Assembly: GCA_963754335.1 (NCBI GenBank)
Contig: CAVWFQ010000004.1
Coordinates: forward strand, 205,866 to 269,865
Direction: 5' to 3'
Source: an uncultured Phycisphaerales bacterium
GTDB lineage: Bacteria; Planctomycetota; Phycisphaerae; Tepidisphaerales; Tepidisphaeraceae
DNA length: 64,000 nt
Shown: in pieces, positions 18,346 through 59,837 of the stretch
How the letters are laid out: each line of letters begins with the position of its first letter
How positions within the stretch are numbered: the stretch's first letter is position 1
The notes under the pieces: generated by a model
Seen by the model: only the letters and a program-made list of their open reading frames with translations
Database searches by the model: none
Told to the model about the DNA's origin: nothing
Program-made: the position numbers and the translations under genes

Positions 18346-18581
18346 ATGGAAGTTGAGTTTGGCGGCGCGCCGCGTCGAAGGCAAGCGAGAGGGAATTAAA
18401 CCAACCGCGAAGTCGCGAAAGGCGCGAAGTCAGACGCGAAGGAATGCCAGAGAGCGGTGATCGCTCCGCACTAACCCTCTTCTTCGCGTTTTGCTTCGCG
18501 CTCTTCGTGCCTTCGCGATTGGTCTTTCATTTTCTCATTGCGAAGAGCAGATCGAAAAAACGGGTCGATCGTGCGACCGGT

Positions 18582-19166
18582 TTATTTCTCTGCCGCCTTC
18601 GCCGCCTCGATGACGCCACCGGCGATGCGCGCCGGAATTGCCGGAGGGATCGGTCTTCAGATCGTCGGCCTTGGCGTGGATGATGACCGAATGGCCGATC
18701 ACGCCATTTTTTTCGCCGCTGATCGAAAGCCCCGCCACGGTTACTTCCAGGTGGGCATGGCCCTTATCATCGGCGGTGAGATTGCCGAGATCGCCGGCGT
18801 GATGCTCGGCGGAATCCGGGCCGCCATGGTGATGGCCGTCGGGGTTGAAATGTCCGCCGGCGCTGCTCAGGTCGGGGCGCTGAGGTCTGGTTTAGCGTGA
18901 ATGTGAAAACCATGGTCTCCCGGCGTCAGGCCGTCAATGTCCGCGACGACCTTCACCTTGTCCCCGTCCTCAGTGAACGTCACCGTTCCGCTGATCTCGG
19001 ATTTGACATTCCCGGCGTTGTGAATTGTCGCAGTCGCACTTGCTGCAGTGGCCGCAAGCGCGACGGGCGGAGCCGTCGTGGCCGCGGCATCGTGAGAGGC
19101 GGCGGCGCAGAATCCTGCCAGCAGACCGATCAGGGCAACGGTATAAGACATCGTTCGATCTCGCAT
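18582..19166 (-). pseudogene. sodC: Cu/Zn superoxide dismutase (SodC) interrupted by at least 3 frameshifts
   Basis: Signal peptide plus [35 protein letters not shown], then shifted frames giving [44 protein letters not shown] and GNSGARIAGGVIEAAKAAEK*. Three indels fall within ~585 bp. Confidence 0.75.
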
Positions 19167-19244
19167 CGAAACCTCCGGAAGTGAAAGTTGTTAGTAATTC
19201 GTTTCGTCCAGAAGAAACATGATACCGCGCTGCGGGTCAGTTCC

Positions 19245-19432
19245 GGAAATCGGCGGCAGTTCTTTCCCCCTCTCCCGGTACTCTGGGAGAAGCGAGCGGA
19301 TCGGGCGACTGCCCGCGAGCGGGTTGGGGTGAGGGTCGTCCACATCGCGCGTCGAAAACCCTCACCCCGCGCCCTCTCCGGCGGTACCGGGCGAGGGCGA
19401 GATTTTCGGACCGCCGAATCTGTCACGCGCCC
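19245..19432. repeat. MITE-like composite palindromic repeat (family copy A)
   Basis: Two inverted arms (ccctctcccggtactctgggaga...gggttggggtgagggtc and gaccctcaccccgcgccctctccggcggtaccgggcgaggg) flank a ~40-bp core. Terminal imperfect inverted repeats (aatcggcggcag / ccgccgaatctg). Related copies at 38797-38978 and 58444-58620. Confidence 0.8.
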
Positions 19433-30092: not shown

Positions 30093-30524
30093 TCATTGCG
30101 CGGCCGATTCTCTTACTCCCTCTCCCGGTACGCCGGGAGAGGGTTGGGGTGAGGGTCTTTCTTCGAGGTGCCGATAGATGTGTTCCGCCACAATCCGCGT
30201 GTCTTTCAGGACATTGTGACCCCAGAAGCGGAGAACTCGAATACCAAAATCATTTAGTTTCTTCGTCCGACGCTCGTCATATGCCAGAACCGCGGCGTCG
30301 CCATGCTGCCCGCCATCCAGTTCAACGGCGAGTTGACCTTCGGCACAATAAAAATCGAGGATATATCCAGCGACCGGTTGTTGCCTGCGGAACTTGAACC
30401 CGGCCAATCGTCTGCCGCGCAAGATTGACCAGAGTTTTGATTCGGCGTCAGTCCGATTCTTCCGCAGGTCCCGCGCGAAGCCCAGCAGTCGTGGAGAATG
30501 ATCGCGCGGCATGTCCCTAATCAT
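30093..30524 (-). CDS. DUF559 (Vsr-like restriction-endonuclease fold) protein; C-terminus runs into repeat unit
   Basis: DUF559 signature LRKNRTDAESKLW..FRRQQPVAGYILDFYC..LAVELDGGQH..GIRVLRFW. The last ~20 aa (PSPQPSPGVPGEG) are encoded by the palindromic repeat unit at 30101-30160. Confidence 0.8.
   Translation of the reverse strand: MIRDMPRDHSPRLLGFARDLRKNRTDAESKLWSILRGRRLAGFKFRRQQPVAGYILDFYCAEGQLAVELDGGQHGDAAVLAYDERRTKKLNDFGIRVLRFWGHNVLKDTRIVAEHIYRHLEERPSPQPSPGVPGEGVRESAAQ
30101..30160. repeat. solo palindromic repeat half-unit (ccctctcccggtacgccgggagagggttggggtgagggtc)
   Basis: Same arm sequence as the MITE-like family; overlaps the 3' end of the DUF559 gene. Confidence 0.8.
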
Positions 30525-30535
30525 GCGGGCGAACA

Positions 30536-30720
30536 GCGATCAATCAAGACCCTCACCCCAGCCCTCTCCCGGAGTACCGGGAGAGGGGGAATACCTCCGG
30601 CATCGTTGGGCTTTGGAAGGAGTGGCAAGCATTGAAGCACTTCTGGGGAGAAGGCGGGGATCAATCAAGACCCTCACCCCGACCCTCTCCCGGAGTACCG
30701 GTAGAGGGAGAAGAGGCCTG
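30536..30720. repeat. tandem duplication (~120-bp unit) of repeat half-units (gatcaatcaagaccctcacccc..ccctctcccggagtaccgggagaggg)
   Basis: Two near-identical segments begin at 30536 and 30656. Each carries the palindrome ctctcccggagtaccgggagag. Located between the DUF559 start and the K+-channel stop. Confidence 0.8.
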
Positions 30721-31126
30721 CGCTCCGTTCATTGTTTGCAAAATCAGTTGCAGTGCCTGCAGGATCTGCTCCTGAGTCTGCTGCTGAACCGCCTCGCGCT
30801 GCGCTACGCGACCGTCGAGCGCGGCCCCGGACAAAGCCGGCCCCACCGTCATCAAAGTCGATCCGAGGATTTTTCCAACTGGCGTCTTGGCGAAGATGTC
30901 GCCGTAGCCGACCGACAGACACGTCGAGCAATAAACCATCGCATCCCAGAGATCGTTCACCTTCGGATTATGGTTTTTCTCCGCCGCGTAGAAGAGCAGC
31001 GAGCTGACCGCGACGGCGGCGGCAGTATTGCGCCGGCGAGTCGGTCAGCTTCGCCGCCCATTCCTCGATCGAAAACGATTCGGGAATCGGCAGTCCCAGG
31101 GCGATCAAATCTTCTTTCAGTGACAT
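30661..31126 (-). CDS. small 2TM K+ channel-like protein (TVGYGD-type selectivity filter), probable frameshift near 31030
   Basis: LFYAAEKNHNPKVNDLWDAMVYCSTCLSVGYGDIFAKTPVGKILGSTLMTVG gives an S5-end/pore-helix/filter/TM2 arrangement. ATG 31126 lies 3 nt after the flotillin stop. The N-terminal 30 aa are in a different frame from the pore region. The C-terminal tail is encoded by the repeat element. Confidence 0.5.
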
Positions 31127-38713: not shown

Positions 38714-38796
38714 GATTGCTCCGAAAATTTCACAAAGCTGCAGAAGCTAAGGGAGCGCCGGGAAAACGTAAAGCGGAGTGCGTGACGAGTGCGTGA

Positions 38797-38978
38797 CAGA
38801 ATCGTCGGCAGAATTCTATCGCCCTCTCGCAGTACTCTGGGAGAGGGTTGGCGTGAGGGTCCTTCGACGATGCTCAGGACGGGCAATCCGCATGGCGCGT
38901 CGAAGACCCTCACCGCGCGCCCGCTCCCGGAGTACCGGGCGAGGGGGAGAGTTTCTGGGCCGCCGAATCTGTCAGGCA
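38797..38978. repeat. MITE-like composite palindromic repeat (family copy B)
   Basis: Terminal inverted repeats gacagaatcgtcggc / gccgccgaatctgtc. Internal arms gccctctcgcagtactctgggagagggttggcgtgagggtc and gaccctcaccgcgcgcccgctcccggagtaccgggcgaggg. Intergenic between argG and the SRPBCC gene. Confidence 0.85.
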
Positions 38979-39030
38979 TTCATTCAAAACTTTTGTCCTG
39001 CCGGCGGCCGCATCGTGCATAAAAGGTTTT

Positions 39031-57451: not shown

Positions 57452-57559
57452 GGGTTAGCTCCTTGTGTGATTTGCTTTGGCAAGCATAACCGCAACGCTC
57501 TCTTTGCGCACGGGCCTCATTCCCCTACACTCTGGCGCTTGCAAAGCGAGGCTAACCGT

Positions 57560-58128
57560 ATGCGACATGTGATATCGGCGTTGGTGATCAATGAGCCGGG
57601 CGTGCTGGCGAACGTGGCGGGGATGTTCGCCGCCCGGGGCTTCAATATCGATTCGCTCGTGGTCGGGCGGACCGAAAACCCCGACCTGTCCCGGATGACG
57701 ATCGTTGTCAACGGCGACGATAACACGCTCGACCAGGTGCGCAAGCAGCTCGCCAAGCTCGTGCCGGTGGCGTCGGTTCGCGATTTCAAGAACACGGCTT
57801 ACATCGAGCGCGACCTGGCGATGATCACCATCGAGGTCGGCCCGGAAGGCGCGGGGAAGTGATCGAAATCGCCAATCTCTTCCGCGGTAAGATTGTCGAC
57901 GTCTCGGAAAACGCTTTAGTCGTCGAACTGGCCGGAACGGAGCAAAAGGTTGAGGCGTTGGTCGAACTCCTCAGGCCTTACGGAATCCGCGAGCTGGCCC
58001 GTACTGGAATCATCGCAATGGCCCGCGGCATGCAAAACACGCATGACGGCCGGCAGTCCGTCCCTTCCTCAGGAAAGCGAACGCGAAGTCTGGACGCGCC
58101 GGCGGCGGCGGCACTCCCGCCGAGTTAG
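57560..58128 (+). CDS. ilvH: acetolactate synthase small (regulatory) subunit, frameshifted near 57860
   Basis: ACT domain (HVISALVINEPGVLANVAGMFAARGFNIDSLVVGRTE..LSRMTIVV) and ALS_ss_C-like C-terminus (IEIANLFRGKIVDVS...VELAG). No ilvB adjacent. Confidence 0.8.
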
Positions 58129-58151: not shown

Positions 58152-58260
58152 GTTGAACGTTGGAAGTTGAACGTTGAAAGTTCAATTGAAGTAACCACAT
58201 CGTGGATTCGGGAATAAACGTTCAATCCCGCGCGCGGGACTCAACGCTCAACTTTCAACG
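58152..58260. promoter_or_regulatory. long inverted repeat / palindromic element between convergent ilvH and waaA
   Basis: The gttgaacgtt motif occurs twice. Arm 58166-58185 (gttgaacgttgaaagttcaa) pairs with arm 58242-58260 (caacgctcaactttcaacg, reverse complement). A central perfect palindrome cccgcgcgcggg lies between them. Confidence 0.45.
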
Positions 58261-59793
58261 GGCCGGGTCGCCCTCACGATTCAGTTGATCCAGAATAATC
58301 TGCACATGCTTTTCCGTTGCCCCTTGCTGCTGGCGCACCACTTCCTTCGCGCGAGCGCCGATCGCAACAGCGGCCGAAAGATCGATGAGCAGCGAGTCAA
58401 TTGCAACCACTAGCTCGTTTGCCTCTACGACGCGGCTCCGTGACCGATTCGGCGGTCCAAAAAGTTCCCCTCTCTCCCGGTACTCCGGGAGAGGGCCAGG
58501 GGTGAGGGTCTTCGACGCGCGATCTGGACGGCCCTCACCCCGACCCGCTCGCGGGCAGTCGCCAATTCCGCTCGCTTCTCCCGAAGTACTGGGAGAGGGG
58601 GAAGAAACTCTGCCGCCGACTTTGCCATGCACCCCCACGACGCGAATCGCGTCGGCGGCGAGGAAGCAGTTCATTGGCTCTGCAAAGTTTTGGGTAAACG
58701 GCCCAACGACCACCGGCTTGCCCAGCGCCGCCGGCTCGATCATGTCGCTGCCGTGCTGGCGTGGGCCCAGATCGACCAGCGTTCTGCCAACCAGCACGAC
58801 CGTGGCGAGACTGTAGAATTTTCTGAGCTCGCCAAAGGTGTCGCCGAGGATCACGGGTCTGTTGGGGTTCGAAGAAGAGGGAGAGGGGGCGGCAACGTGG
58901 GAGCGGCGTTTTATCGCGAAGCCGCGAGCGGCAATCAACTCGGCGACTTCGTCGAATCGCGGGCGATGACGCGGGACGATCACGAGTCGTAGCGTCGGAT
59001 GACGATCGATCAGTGCCCGGTAGGCGTCAAGGATCAGCTCTTCTTCCCCAGGCCCGGTCGATCCGCAAACCCATACGGGTCCATCGGCGGGCGCAATTCC
59101 AACATCCGCCGCAAGCTGTTCACTTCCTTCAACCCGATCGCCCAGATGCGCGCTGTCGAATTTCATCGTCCCGACGACGCTGATCCGATTGGCTGGCGCA
59201 CCCAGTTTCAGGAAGCGTTCGGCGTATCGCGCTTCCTGGGCACAGACATACGCGAGATTGCGAAACATTCCGCCCACGAGCGGCCGCACAAGGCGGTATC
59301 CCCTGAAACTCGTCTCGGTGATCCGCCCATTGGCGAGGATCACCGGGATTCGGCGGCGGCGGCATTCGCCGACAAAGTTGGGCCACAGTTCGAGTTCCAT
59401 CAATACGACAACCGCCGGCTTCGCGCTGTCGAGCACGCGGGAGACGGCGTGGCTGAAATCAAGCGGATATCGAATCCGCGTTACGCGCGGGTCATTTCCG
59501 TAAAGCTCGCTGCTTCGGTCCCAGCCACTCGCGGTCGTCGTGCTGACCACAAATCGGATATCGGGCCGGCGCTCAGCAAGCAATCGGAGCAGGCTCGTGG
59601 TGGCGTTCAACTCCCCATTGCTGACGGCGTGGATGAAAACGGCGGGGCGGGAATCGGGCGCAGCAGGCGATCGTCCCATCCGTTCGCGAAAGGCGGCAAG
59701 CAATTTGCGACGCGTAGACGGGCGCAAAAGCCACCATGGAGCGGCGATCGCAAGCCCCAGCCCATAGGCGACGTCGTAAAAGGTAATCGCCAT
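58255..59793 (-). CDS. waaA: 3-deoxy-D-manno-octulosonic acid (Kdo) transferase with in-frame ~60-aa insertion from repeat element
   Basis: WaaA/KdtA blocks (NGELNATTSLLRLL, RIPVILANGRITETSF, C-terminal VVRQQQGATEKHVQIILDQL). The continuous ORF reads through the MITE-like copy at 58444-58620. The most likely start is ATG 59793 (MAITFYDVAYGLGLAIAAPWWLL). Confidence 0.85.
   Translation of the reverse strand: MAITFYDVAYGLGLAIAAPWWLLRPSTRRKLLAAFRERMGRSPAAPDSRPAVFIHAVSNGELNATTSLLRLLAERRPDIRFVVSTTTASGWDRSSELYGNDPRVTRIRYPLDFSHAVSRVLDSAKPAVVVLMELELWPNFVGECRRRRIPVILANGRITETSFRGYRLVRPLVGGMFRNLAYVCAQEARYAERFLKLGAPANRISVVGTMKFDSAHLGDRVEGSEQLAADVGIAPADGPVWVCGSTGPGEEELILDAYRALIDRHPTLRLVIVPRHRPRFDEVAELIAARGFAIKRRSHVAAPSPSSSNPNRPVILGDTFGELRKFYSLATVVLVGRTLVDLGPRQHGSDMIEPAALGKPVVVGPFTQNFAEPMNCFLAADAIRVVGVHGKVGGRVSSPSPSTSGEASGIGDCPRAGRGEGRPDRASKTLTPGPLPEYRERGELFGPPNRSRSRVVEANELVVAIDSLLIDLSAAVAIGARAKEVVRQQQGATEKHVQIILDQLNREGDPAR
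58444..58620. repeat. MITE-like composite palindromic repeat (family copy C, reverse orientation) inside waaA
   Basis: Terminal motif gaccgattcggcggtcc / ctgccgccgac. Arms ccctctctcccggtactccgggagagggccaggggtgagggtc and gccctcacccc...cttctcccgaagtactgggagaggggg. Translated in-frame as ...SSPSPSTSGE...LTPGPLPEYRERGELFGPPN... Confidence 0.85.
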
Positions 59794-59804
59794 GAGGAAC
59801 AAAG

Positions 59805-59837
<33 letters not shown>

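Follow-up and report, generated by a model that had tools for sequence, protein, structure and literature searches.

In the REPIN/RAYT system, REP doublets are mobilised by a Y1 transposase and RAYT genes are bracketed by REPs; to our knowledge, mobilisation of the IS200/IS605 type makes no target-site duplication. A G/C-rich intrastrand triplex motif makes up the BoxC or PIT elements of E. coli (Holder et al. 2015, PMC4666352); the accessible sections of that paper describe BoxC/TM as intergenic, describe inverted pairs for TM-ECO, and contain no transposition mechanism for BoxC/TM. ERIC, QMITE of Coxiella and the MITEs of Anabaena are found inside genes and occasionally make in-frame fusions with the open reading frames (ORFs) of their hosts, as described in PMC10969869 and PMC5896051. 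The Rickettsia palindromic elements (RPEs; Ogata et al. 2000, 2002) are palindromes of 100–200 bp that occur in many copies and lie in frame in unrelated housekeeping genes, and, according to the summary in PMC10969869, the peptides they add fall where the protein fold is judged able to take them.

Here we analyse a repeat that lies in frame inside the Kdo transferase gene waaA within a 64-kb stretch of planctomycete DNA (the window, by which we mean the whole stretch). Like the RPEs, it leaves the reading frame of its host gene unbroken. Its core resembles BoxC, and it is framed by the inverted termini and target-site duplication of a MITE.

A 202-bp element occupies a site in waaA that is empty in relatives

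The host gene, waaA (Kdo transferase, GT30), is a 525-aa ORF of 1578 bp on the minus strand at 58255–59832, assigned from the ORF list and a match of its product to PF04413 (Glycos_transf_N domain, E = 1e-53). P0001, an identical database copy of the window WaaA, is 518 aa long and starts at the ATG at 59811. A database protein search found 2225 homologues, the nearest relatives being from Tepidisphaerales and Tepidisphaeraceae MAGs, and the best solved-structure match is the Aquifex WaaA 2xci (Foldseek and phmmer). Homology to WaaA ends at ...AADAIRVV and picks up again at EANELV..., directly past the insert, just as the earlier note had described. Of the 120 closest proteins (the best 120 of 2225), 119 lack the block of 70 residues in between (GVHGKV...RSRSRVV), and its sole carrier is the identical P0001. 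The ORF at 58255–59832 is uninterrupted, in agreement with the claim that the repeat sits in the waaA frame without a stop or frameshift. The frame continues across the repeat and on into the conserved C-terminal WaaA helices, which means that what lies downstream is no ORF of its own.

The borders of the element were set by the empty sites of two relatives (L037 and L001) together with the flanking duplication. They place it at 58435–58636 on the minus strand, with a length of 202 bp, and so correct the first estimate of ~177 bp at 58444–58620; likewise, the insert had been put at ~60 residues and actually comprises 70, of which the element itself encodes residues ~400–467. In gene orientation, the upstream copy of the target-site duplication (58637–58644, CGCGTCGT on the gene strand) encodes the native ...RVV, and the downstream copy (58427–58434) encodes a second RVV. 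The duplication is a perfect 8-bp direct repeat, ACGACGCG on the plus strand; an alternative reading makes it 9 bp long, GCGTCGTGG against GCGTCGTAG, the two differing at one synonymous position. At the two closest loci (84% and 73% identity) the site is empty: the DNA reads straight across, and the octamer is present in single copy as CGCGTCGT in L001 and CGAGTCGT in L037. The orthologues, at both the protein and the DNA level, thus uphold the earlier view that the segment was inserted. Element and duplication together make 210 bp, or 70 codons, which are free of stops in the reading phase used. As 210 is divisible by three, the waaA frame past the insert is always kept, and half of the six frames (3/6) are open in the waaA copy because the C3/G3 blocks (CCCTCTCCC, GGGAGAGGG and GGGTGAGGG) give a stop only as GGG-TGA-GGG. 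In summary, the conserved waaA ORF carries an in-frame insertion at a site where its orthologues have none.

Could the insert be an artefact, with a copy of the repeat misjoined into waaA when the metagenome was assembled? The source has the look of an assembled contig of 440 kb, repeats are classic misassembly sites, and apparent frameshifts of an indel-like kind elsewhere in the window, in ilvN and sodC, indicate that the sequence quality is imperfect. A misjoin, however, would not make a precise 8-bp target duplication, would not resume waaA at the very next base and in the same frame, and would not yield a copy that is 17–30% different from every other copy. We therefore regard this explanation as highly improbable.

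The element is a MITE with a BoxC-like core

At its 5' end on the gene strand, the element has a terminal inverted repeat at 58613–58636 (GGGGGTGCATGGCAAAGTCGGCGG), a degenerate form of the family consensus GGGTGCGTGACAGATTCGGCGG as judged from the five-copy alignment; the repeat at the other end is at 58435–58455 (plus strand GCTCCGTGACCGATTCGGCGG). Across the family, the terminal inverted repeats with this consensus measure 21–24 bp and the target-site duplication 8–9 bp. The termini of the waaA copy are complementary at 13/21 positions by manual count. Between them, on the plus strand, lies an intact triplex-motif (BoxC-like) module at 58467–58508, with the arrangement CCCCTCTCTCCCGG-TACT-CCGGGAGAGGG-CCA-GGGGTGAGGG. 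Its inverted partner at 58532–58601 consists of CCCTCACCCC, a 34-nt extra hairpin segment (58542–58575) and the degenerate hairpin TTCTCCCGAAGTACTGGGAGAGGGGG. The extra segment is common to the waaA copy, the copy at 19226, the L161 copy and the histidine-kinase insert described below.

The MITE in waaA folds into a single long hairpin (RNA −122 kcal/mol, z = −4.8), and a hairpin of this stability within the coding mRNA could lower expression. An Rfam search of the element gave no family match, only sub-threshold miRNA-like hairpin matches. An intrinsic terminator scan of the sense strand of the insert did not flag the hairpin followed by CTTTTT, as the T-run begins 4 nt past the stem. At 202 bp in waaA and 195–226 bp in the other copies, the element is small (the class limit is under about 300–500 bp) and has no transposase gene, its ORFs being read-through frames only. 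Small size, inverted termini, a duplication verified by an empty site and dispersed copies are all observed, and the element is a MITE. The term 'MITE-like' used at first can accordingly be upgraded, given the terminal inverted repeats, the target-site duplication and the copies in several genomes.

Two further full copies lie in the window, both intergenic. The first, at 19226–19431 (206 bp), is upstream of the frameshifted sodC, and its flanks, CATGATAC / CATGATGC, form a duplication that is 7/8 identical. The second, at 38787–38981 (195 bp), is a symmetric variant between argG and a divergent ORF, with no recognisable duplication. The waaA copy is 83–85% identical to the first and about 70% identical to the second overall (82% across the best 94 bp), which substantiates the family relationship proposed earlier with the repeats near 19245 and 38797. 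Identity to the L161 and L162 copies is 77%. L161, from another genome, holds a canonical copy with 22-bp inverted termini (GGGTGCGTGACAGATTCGGCGG / CCAACGAATCTGTCACGCACCC) and a perfect 8-bp duplication (CTGTCGAG twice), and the L162 copy has no target duplication; in all, 2 of the 5 full copies are without one. The five aligned full copies are 70–91% identical and fall into three structural variants. Thus the window has three full copies, one of them intragenic, and further copies are found on at least three other contigs. Members of the family in other genomes were reached via a protein-level scan; a metagenome scan with a pattern of terminus plus hairpin (TGACAGATTCGGCGGN{8,18}CCCTCNCCCGG) returned 0 matches.

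These copies bear on the idea that the insert is a native, lineage-specific low-complexity linker whose likeness to the repeat is one of composition only. Pro/Gly/Ser-rich linkers are indeed common. Composition, however, would not account for inverted termini with a flanking duplication, nor for 70–83% DNA identity over ~200 bp to intergenic copies here and in other genomes. The empty sites, the flanking duplication and the five-copy alignment refute the linker reading, and we give it practically no weight.

Isolated modules, mobilisation and in-frame repeats in other genes

The building block of the MITE, a 45-nt hairpin module, also occurs in isolation. Its 26-nt hairpin core has 7 occurrences in the window versus 0 expected from shuffles, and three isolated triplex-motif hairpin modules lie in the region 30100–30714 (30118–30157, 30548–30591 and 30669–30714). 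Two of the isolated modules bracket a DUF559 gene in inverted orientation (30100–30591). The C-terminal tail of the DUF559 ORF (30093–30524) comes from the module at 30118–30157, and that of an ion-channel fragment (30661–30960) from the module at 30669–30714. The earlier statement that the repeat supplies the tails of the DUF559 and K+-channel ORFs is therefore right for the hairpin sub-module and wrong for full copies. In soil metagenomes the module is abundant, with at least 120 matches, and inverted doublets account for 59 of the 120 among the matches listed.

Duplications of 8–9 bp fit several IS families. No autonomous IS with the MITE termini (GGGTGCGTGACAG...) was found in the window or in the fetched loci; the termini occur only at MITE ends within the window and, among the other fetched loci, only in L161 and L162. 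DUF559 was considered as the mobilising nuclease and rejected because, despite its bracketing in the window, it adjoins the module in only 1 of the 120 metagenome loci listed (tblastn).

In-frame insertions of related repeats recur, and this recurrence was observed across different genomes. A hybrid histidine kinase carries an arm of the same subfamily in frame inside its HATPase_c domain, and another WaaA has a related palindrome in frame at a different site. Among other metagenome genes, the hairpin module is in frame in PriA (where the downstream part was read by eye), in PDH E1-beta and in a TPR-GT41 protein, with Pfam domains on both sides in all three. Judging from the domain layout, Mfd probably also carries the repeat in frame, with a domain match on one side only, and so probably does a sulfite-reductase-like protein, in which the module falls between two reductase half-domains. 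In a GT2 protein, the module follows the catalytic domain.

A predicted disordered loop in a conserved WaaA

The AlphaFold2 model of the window WaaA has a mean pLDDT of 84.6, with the core mostly >90. Residues 404–464 have pLDDT <50 and no secondary structure, and lie between strand 397–398 and helix 471–483. The model thus predicts that the insert is a disordered loop leading from the final beta-strand of the C-terminal Rossmann domain to the helix after it, in line with the protein loop envisaged in the earlier note. The orthologue P0095 has a natural 6-residue insertion in the same loop. By composition, 70% of the 70-aa insert is Gly, Pro, Ser, Arg, Glu or Thr, and its net charge is +5.

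The insert may have been exapted, with selection maintaining the loop for some role, for instance in contacting the membrane or a partner or in regulating WaaA. The loop is basic and WaaA acts at the membrane surface, and related repeats are repeatedly in frame in proteins, both of which would suit a recruited peptide. On the other hand, the insert is in no orthologue, it is predicted to be unstructured, and its sequence is the one specified by the repeat consensus, without any trace of refinement at the protein level. Among 1.84 billion representatives, only four sequences, all of them repeat-derived, are significantly related to the peptide; the 70-aa insert had no matches in a word-indexed protein search, and a literature search for repeat-derived peptides (GEGRGEG and similar) turned up no paper. 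We consider exaptation very unlikely. The divergence of WaaA is not accelerated, and the insert is therefore most likely tolerated rather than exapted. Of the pair 'exapted or tolerated' that had been left side by side, only the second has support, which is indirect and comes from the intact ORF, the lack of rate acceleration and the naturally length-variable loop; for the first, there is no hint that the insert has a function.

The conservation of the enzyme was compared on both sides of the insert. All 70 of the 70 columns invariant across 120 orthologues are kept in the window WaaA, including G504 and T506, which lie 3' of the insert. Its mean identity to 117 orthologues is 58.2%, versus 57.0% and 57.6% for two insert-free relatives. 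Over the 51 residues 3' of the insert, the mean identity to other orthologues is 44.9%, versus 49.5% for P0002 and 46.3% for P0003. There is no second waaA within the 64-kb window, and waaA is essential in model Gram-negative bacteria. An intact ORF with normal divergence is also what would be expected of an insertion that is very recent and inactivating.

An insertion that is real but inactivating would make this waaA a young pseudogene or crippled allele in which stops and frameshifts have not yet accumulated, with Kdo transfer either performed by a gene outside the window or lost. It would fit with the very stable mRNA hairpin, with a segment 3' of the insert that is marginally less conserved than in P0002 and with other window genes that look frameshifted, and the evidence here is that of sequence and model. 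Yet the 1578-bp ORF is intact where other window genes are broken, the family-invariant residues are kept even past the insert, and the overall rate is not accelerated. The affected loop varies in length naturally and is modelled as disordered, leaving the core undisturbed. Moreover, the copy is already degenerate, both in its imperfectly complementary termini and in its 77–83% identity to the closest copies, so the insertion is probably not brand new. Inactivation therefore seems unlikely, and from the sequence and the model we infer that the window WaaA is functional.

Our preferred explanation, which we hold with good confidence, is that a MITE transposed into waaA and that the insert is carried as a tolerated disordered loop by an enzyme that still works. 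A non-autonomous MITE of ~200 bp would have entered waaA in a Tepidisphaerales-like planctomycete lineage after its split from the closest sampled relative (84% identical WaaA), the mobilising transposase presumably acting in trans. The 70 extra residues would form a disordered surface loop at a naturally length-variable position, so that the GT-B fold and Kdo-transferase activity would survive. The insert would then be neutral or slightly deleterious passenger DNA that was filtered by selection rather than recruited.

Discussion

The waaA MITE appears to be selfish DNA carried in a housekeeping protein, a kind already known from Rickettsia. The case is textbook-clean, as the empty site, the duplication, the termini and the other copies are all visible. 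It links the in-frame carriage of repeats to the widespread BoxC/triplex motif and shows where the WaaA GT-B fold has a permissive loop. Such inserts also have practical consequences, since they inflate protein lengths, break local alignments and spawn spurious 'hypothetical proteins' in metagenome annotation (e.g. P0121–P0123).

We put forward only tentatively the wider possibility that the BoxC/triplex hairpin of soil bacteria is the core of mobile elements that behave like RPEs on a far wider phylogenetic scale, some of them bearing inverted termini and 8–9-bp target duplications. If this is true, the hairpin would have landed in frame twice independently in WaaA, as well as in a histidine-kinase ATPase domain, in PriA, in PDH E1-beta and probably in Mfd, leaving disordered loops of the PSP..PGEG.GEG type in housekeeping proteins. 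It would represent a general source of inserted loops and linkers that has not been described so far, and would provide one way for BoxC-type repeats to spread.

How does the element compare with the described systems? As in REPINs, an inverted doublet of a GC-rich hairpin folds up into a long hairpin, modules occur singly as well as in doublets, and the bracketing of DUF559 by inverted modules (30100–30591) recalls that of RAYT genes. The waaA MITE differs in its flanking inverted termini and target-site duplication. Membership of REPIN/RAYT was rejected: a target duplication is present, no RAYT was noticed, and the only module-bracketed gene is DUF559, a pairing seen in 1 of the 120 loci listed. 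With ERIC, QMITE and the Anabaena MITEs, it shares small size, non-autonomy, inverted termini and target duplications, and it differs from them in family, host and termini.

The likeness to BoxC/TM lies in the core, whose modules have the same blocks, CCCTCTCCC / GGGAGAGGG / GGGTGAGGG, with short loops (58467–58508 compared with Table 1 of PMC4666352), and which forms an inverted module pair, as in the TM-ECO pairs of the accessible sections of that paper. Here the hairpin has 2 bp more in its stem (CCGG) and a loop of 4 nt, and the triplex likeness is one of sequence and hairpin folding. In contrast to BoxC/TM as described there, the doublet is framed by inverted termini and a target duplication and lies inside coding sequence; with these termini and this duplication, it behaves as a MITE.

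Set beside the RPEs, which we compared by description, the element differs in its host (Planctomycetota rather than Alphaproteobacteria, no sequence relationship being expected between the two), its GC-rich composition, its clear inverted termini with an 8–9-bp target duplication, the predicted disorder of its peptide, and the fact that of the three full copies in the window only one lies within a gene. It nevertheless works like an RPE, as a short, recurring palindrome that sits in frame and leaves the reading frame of its gene unbroken.

The repeat lies within an intact Kdo transferase reading frame

The host gene is a single unbroken ORF of 525 codons in the ORF listing (58255-59832, minus strand), whose product matches Glycos_transf_N (PF04413) with E=1e-53. 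Its top solved-structure match by sequence and fold is Aquifex aeolicus WaaA (2xci), and its nearest database relatives, from Tepidisphaerales/Tepidisphaeraceae MAGs, are annotated as 3-deoxy-D-manno-octulosonic-acid transferase. Judged by these matches, the product is a Kdo transferase; the lineage of the nearest relatives would put the window in the Planctomycetota, class Phycisphaerae. Near its start, a perfect tandem array of the heptamer GTTCGAT (4.7 copies, gene strand, 59805-59837) spans alternative waaA ATG starts; between ilvN and waaA, which converge, two GTTGAAC-type heptamer arrays in inverted orientation form a hairpin (58152-58259).

We aligned the window WaaA with 119 orthologues and defined a rare block as an internal stretch of at least 15 residues found in <15% of sequences. 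A 70-residue block occurs only in the window protein and the identical database entry P0001, so that the segment is absent from relatives among the 120 sequences; the sole other rare block, at another position, belongs to the orthologue P0045. The notion of a native WaaA linker is refuted and retains practically no probability. In a 13-sequence alignment, the window protein reads ...AADAIRVV[GVHGKV...RSRSRVV]EANELV..., and the 84%-identical orthologue P0002 reads ...ASDAIRVV-EANALT... with no insert, confirming that WaaA homology resumes directly after it.

In the DNA, both of the closest waaA loci provide empty sites. L037, which encodes P0002, reads straight through as GCGATC CGAGTCGT TGAGGCAAAC, and L001 (73% identical) is also uninterrupted, with CGCGTCGT at that place. 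The window order is CGCGTCGT, 202 bp, a second CGCGTCGT and then AGAGGCAAAC, which places the element at 58435-58636 on the minus (gene) strand between duplicated octamers at 58637-58644 and 58427-58434. This comparison demonstrates the insertion event and its anatomy. An alternative parse gives a 9-bp duplication, GCGTCGTGG vs GCGTCGTAG, with one difference in a synonymous Val codon; the inserted length is identical either way. The element plus one octamer make 210 bp, or 70 codons, and the ORF continues without stop or frameshift, as the earlier note had claimed. Its span of 58444-58620 corresponds to just the inner 177 bp, and its insert of ~60 low-complexity residues was right in character but too short. 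The observation of a repeat inside waaA is real, because it aligns with window stretches near 19245 and 38797 and its 26-nt hairpin core is present at seven places in the window vs none in 100 shuffles.

An assembly artefact is very improbable: the precise duplication contradicts it, as does the 17-30% divergence of the waaA copy from every other copy. Elsewhere in the window, ilvN/ilvH (acetolactate synthase small subunit, 57467-58128) is split into two overlapping ORFs, ACT domain and ALS_ss_C, by a frame change at a GGGG run (junction ~57855-57862, GCGGGGAAGTGATCG), which may be an assembly indel or a genuine frameshift. The gene sodC (Cu/Zn superoxide dismutase, 18560-19166, minus strand) changes frame near 18870, with the N-terminal 99 aa in one frame, the rest (GGHFNP...HAGDLGN...) in another and a further disruption near the C-terminus. 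The assembly therefore holds indel errors or real pseudogenes; indel errors would break, not create, the open frame of waaA.

The waaA repeat is a MITE with dispersed copies

Scanning the insert peptide against 1.84 billion protein representatives yielded four repeat-derived sequences. Through one of them we reached a canonical copy, on the 777-kb contig L161, which has termini GGGTGCGTGACAGATTCGGCGG ... CCAACGAATCTGTCACGCACCC and is bordered on either side by the same 8 bp, CTGTCGAG, an exact duplication. The inverted terminal repeats are degenerate in the waaA copy. In the window, the copy at 19226-19431 lies between CATGATAC and CATGATGC, and no duplication was found at the flanks of the copies at 38787-38981 and in L162, a locus outside the window. 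Five aligned copies share 70-91% identity and represent three structural variants. One is symmetric and 195 bp long; the second, of 226 bp, has an additional 30-nt hairpin segment; the third, the waaA/19226 form, keeps this segment and lacks 24 nt of the centre. Folded as RNA, the entire element makes a single long hairpin of -122 kcal/mol (z=-4.8); Rfam has no family for the element. No autonomous IS partner with matching termini was found in the window or the fetched loci. The waaA repeat is a MITE with all the defining features, because it is small, lacks coding capacity, has inverted termini and an empty-site-verified duplication, and occurs in several dispersed copies.

The first hairpin loop of the L162 copy is split by a 989-bp IS-like element (165-1153; termini CTGCAACTTTTTCGG / CCGAAAAAGTTGCAG) with a possible TACT duplication, whose ORF (~296 aa, starting MEGELWPIVY) gave no Pfam match. 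The database 'proteins' P0121, P0122 and P0123 (e.g. L161 1501-2298) likewise had no Pfam domain match; their similarity to the waaA insert is read-through of intergenic MITE copies, and they look like annotation artefacts.

The hairpin core resembles the BoxC triplex motif

Each MITE arm reads CCCTCTCCCGG-loop-CCGGGAGAGGG-NN-GGGGTGAGGG, the same three blocks as the G/C-rich intrastrand triplex motif of Holder et al. 2015 (PMC4666352), which in E. coli was formerly named BoxC or PIT; it is known from >260 genomes, at times in inverted pairs. Using this single hairpin as a module, we recovered at least 120 stretches from JGI metagenomes, mainly soil and peat. Among the matches listed, the hairpin is complete in 116 of 120 copies with sufficient flank, and 59 of 120 form inverted doublets (median spacer 26 nt), an arrangement also found in the middle of the waaA element. 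Heptamer arrays similar in kind to those beside waaA adjoin modules in 11 of the 120 metagenome loci among the matches listed (e.g. L042, L091, L102, L114).

Three isolated modules lie at 30118-30714 and give ORF tails ...PSPQPSPGVPGEG and ...PSTGTPGEGRGEG. The claim that the repeat supplies the DUF559 and K+-channel tails therefore holds for the hairpin module, not for the full element. The DUF559 gene (Vsr-like endonuclease fold, 30100-30591), tightly bracketed by two inverted modules, looks like RAYT genes flanked by REPs; the association does not generalise, recurring at one of 120 metagenome loci among the matches listed (L076). The 'K+ channel' ORF (30661-30960, minus strand) is just a 99-aa fragment, matched to Ion_trans_2 over profile positions 24-70 of 79, with a hairpin module supplying its tail, so it probably represents the remnant of a gene.

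The insert is predicted to form a disordered loop

Since each block of the element is a C3 or G3 run, stops can take only the form GGG-TGA-GGG or a TGA within the terminus GTGAC, and three of the six frames of the waaA copy are open. As 210 divides by three, the original frame resumes downstream at any target codon phase; together, these properties imply that about half of random in-gene insertions of this copy would be uninterrupted. The 19226 copy with its duplication totals 214 bp, so members of the family need not have a length divisible by three. The true filter is protein tolerance of 70 added residues.

AlphaFold2, run with a 120-sequence alignment, modelled the window WaaA at a pLDDT averaging 84.6, with most of the core >90. 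Residues 404-464 fall below 50 and lack secondary structure; this disordered loop follows the final beta-strand of the C-terminal Rossmann domain (397-398) and precedes helix 471-483. Gly, Pro, Ser, Arg, Glu and Thr together make up 70% of the insert, whose net charge is +5, and in the orthologue P0095 this loop naturally carries 6 inserted residues. Seventy columns are invariant over 120 WaaA sequences, the window protein necessarily among them, including G504 and T506 on the C-terminal side of the insert. Comparing relative rates, identity to orthologue P0003 is 68.9% for the window protein vs 68.3% for P0002; mean identity to 117 other orthologues is 58.2%, 57.0% and 57.6% for the window protein, P0002 and P0003, and 44.9%, 49.5% and 46.3% over the 51 residues after the insert. 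This comparison detected no acceleration of the window WaaA.

The model, composition, P0095 loop, invariant columns and lack of acceleration fit a tolerated surface loop. Of the earlier wording, 'exapted or tolerated', the second term thus agrees with the protein data; exaptation, with neither conservation nor structure in its support, is highly unlikely. We infer that enzyme function is retained and the insert neutral; a young, inactivating insertion is rather unlikely. Most probably, a MITE mobilised in trans inserted into a permissive waaA loop codon after the P0002 lineage split, its length and phase leaving the ORF open and the disordered loop being carried along as passenger DNA.

In-frame insertions recur in other genes and genomes

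A half copy of the MITE subfamily encodes ...SSPSPGTPGEASGIGDCPRAGRGEG... in frame in a 1108-aa hybrid histidine kinase (L159 1501-4827, GCA_036558265.1 DATBFY010000508.1; also L160). This arm is an estimated ~95% identical over ~80 nt of alignment and interrupts the HATPase_c domain, which is matched in two separate stretches. P0045 carries an independent in-frame insert of ~63 aa at an N-terminal site, past the membrane anchor and ahead of the first beta-strand (L038 861-2426, ENA metagenome contig), from a related palindrome with the same hairpin, CCCTCCCCCGGAGTACCGGGGGAGGG arms and different ends.

Modules fall in long open stretches in 30 of 125 metagenome copies among the matches listed, and nine were scanned against Pfam (single modules or doublets, on JGI contigs including L151, L134, L052, L056, L103 and L135). 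The module occupies the linker that joins the lipoyl to the transketolase-like domains in PDH E1-beta, separates TPR repeats from the GT41 domain in a TPR-GT41 protein, and sits between two ferredoxin-like half-domains of a sulfite-reductase-like protein, per the reported stretches. In Mfd, the matched domain (CarD/TRCF) is only downstream of the module; in a GT2 protein, the module lies past the catalytic domain; and in PriA, the module comes after the first helicase lobe and is followed by further PriA-like sequence (by eye, with no Pfam hit). Supported by such in-frame examples, BoxC-type motifs might, tentatively, be the core of mobile elements seeding disordered protein loops in many soil bacteria. 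A literature search for the repeat-derived peptides found no mention of them.

The MITE family, its triplex-motif core and the host phylum appear to lack any earlier description in this role. In-frame landing of small mobile palindromic repeats in housekeeping genes is itself established: a review (PMC10969869) gives 44 insertions of Rickettsia RPEs in R. conorii, and further cases from ERIC, Coxiella QMITE and Anabaena MITEs. The waaA element is no member of those families, yet its insertion works in the same way.
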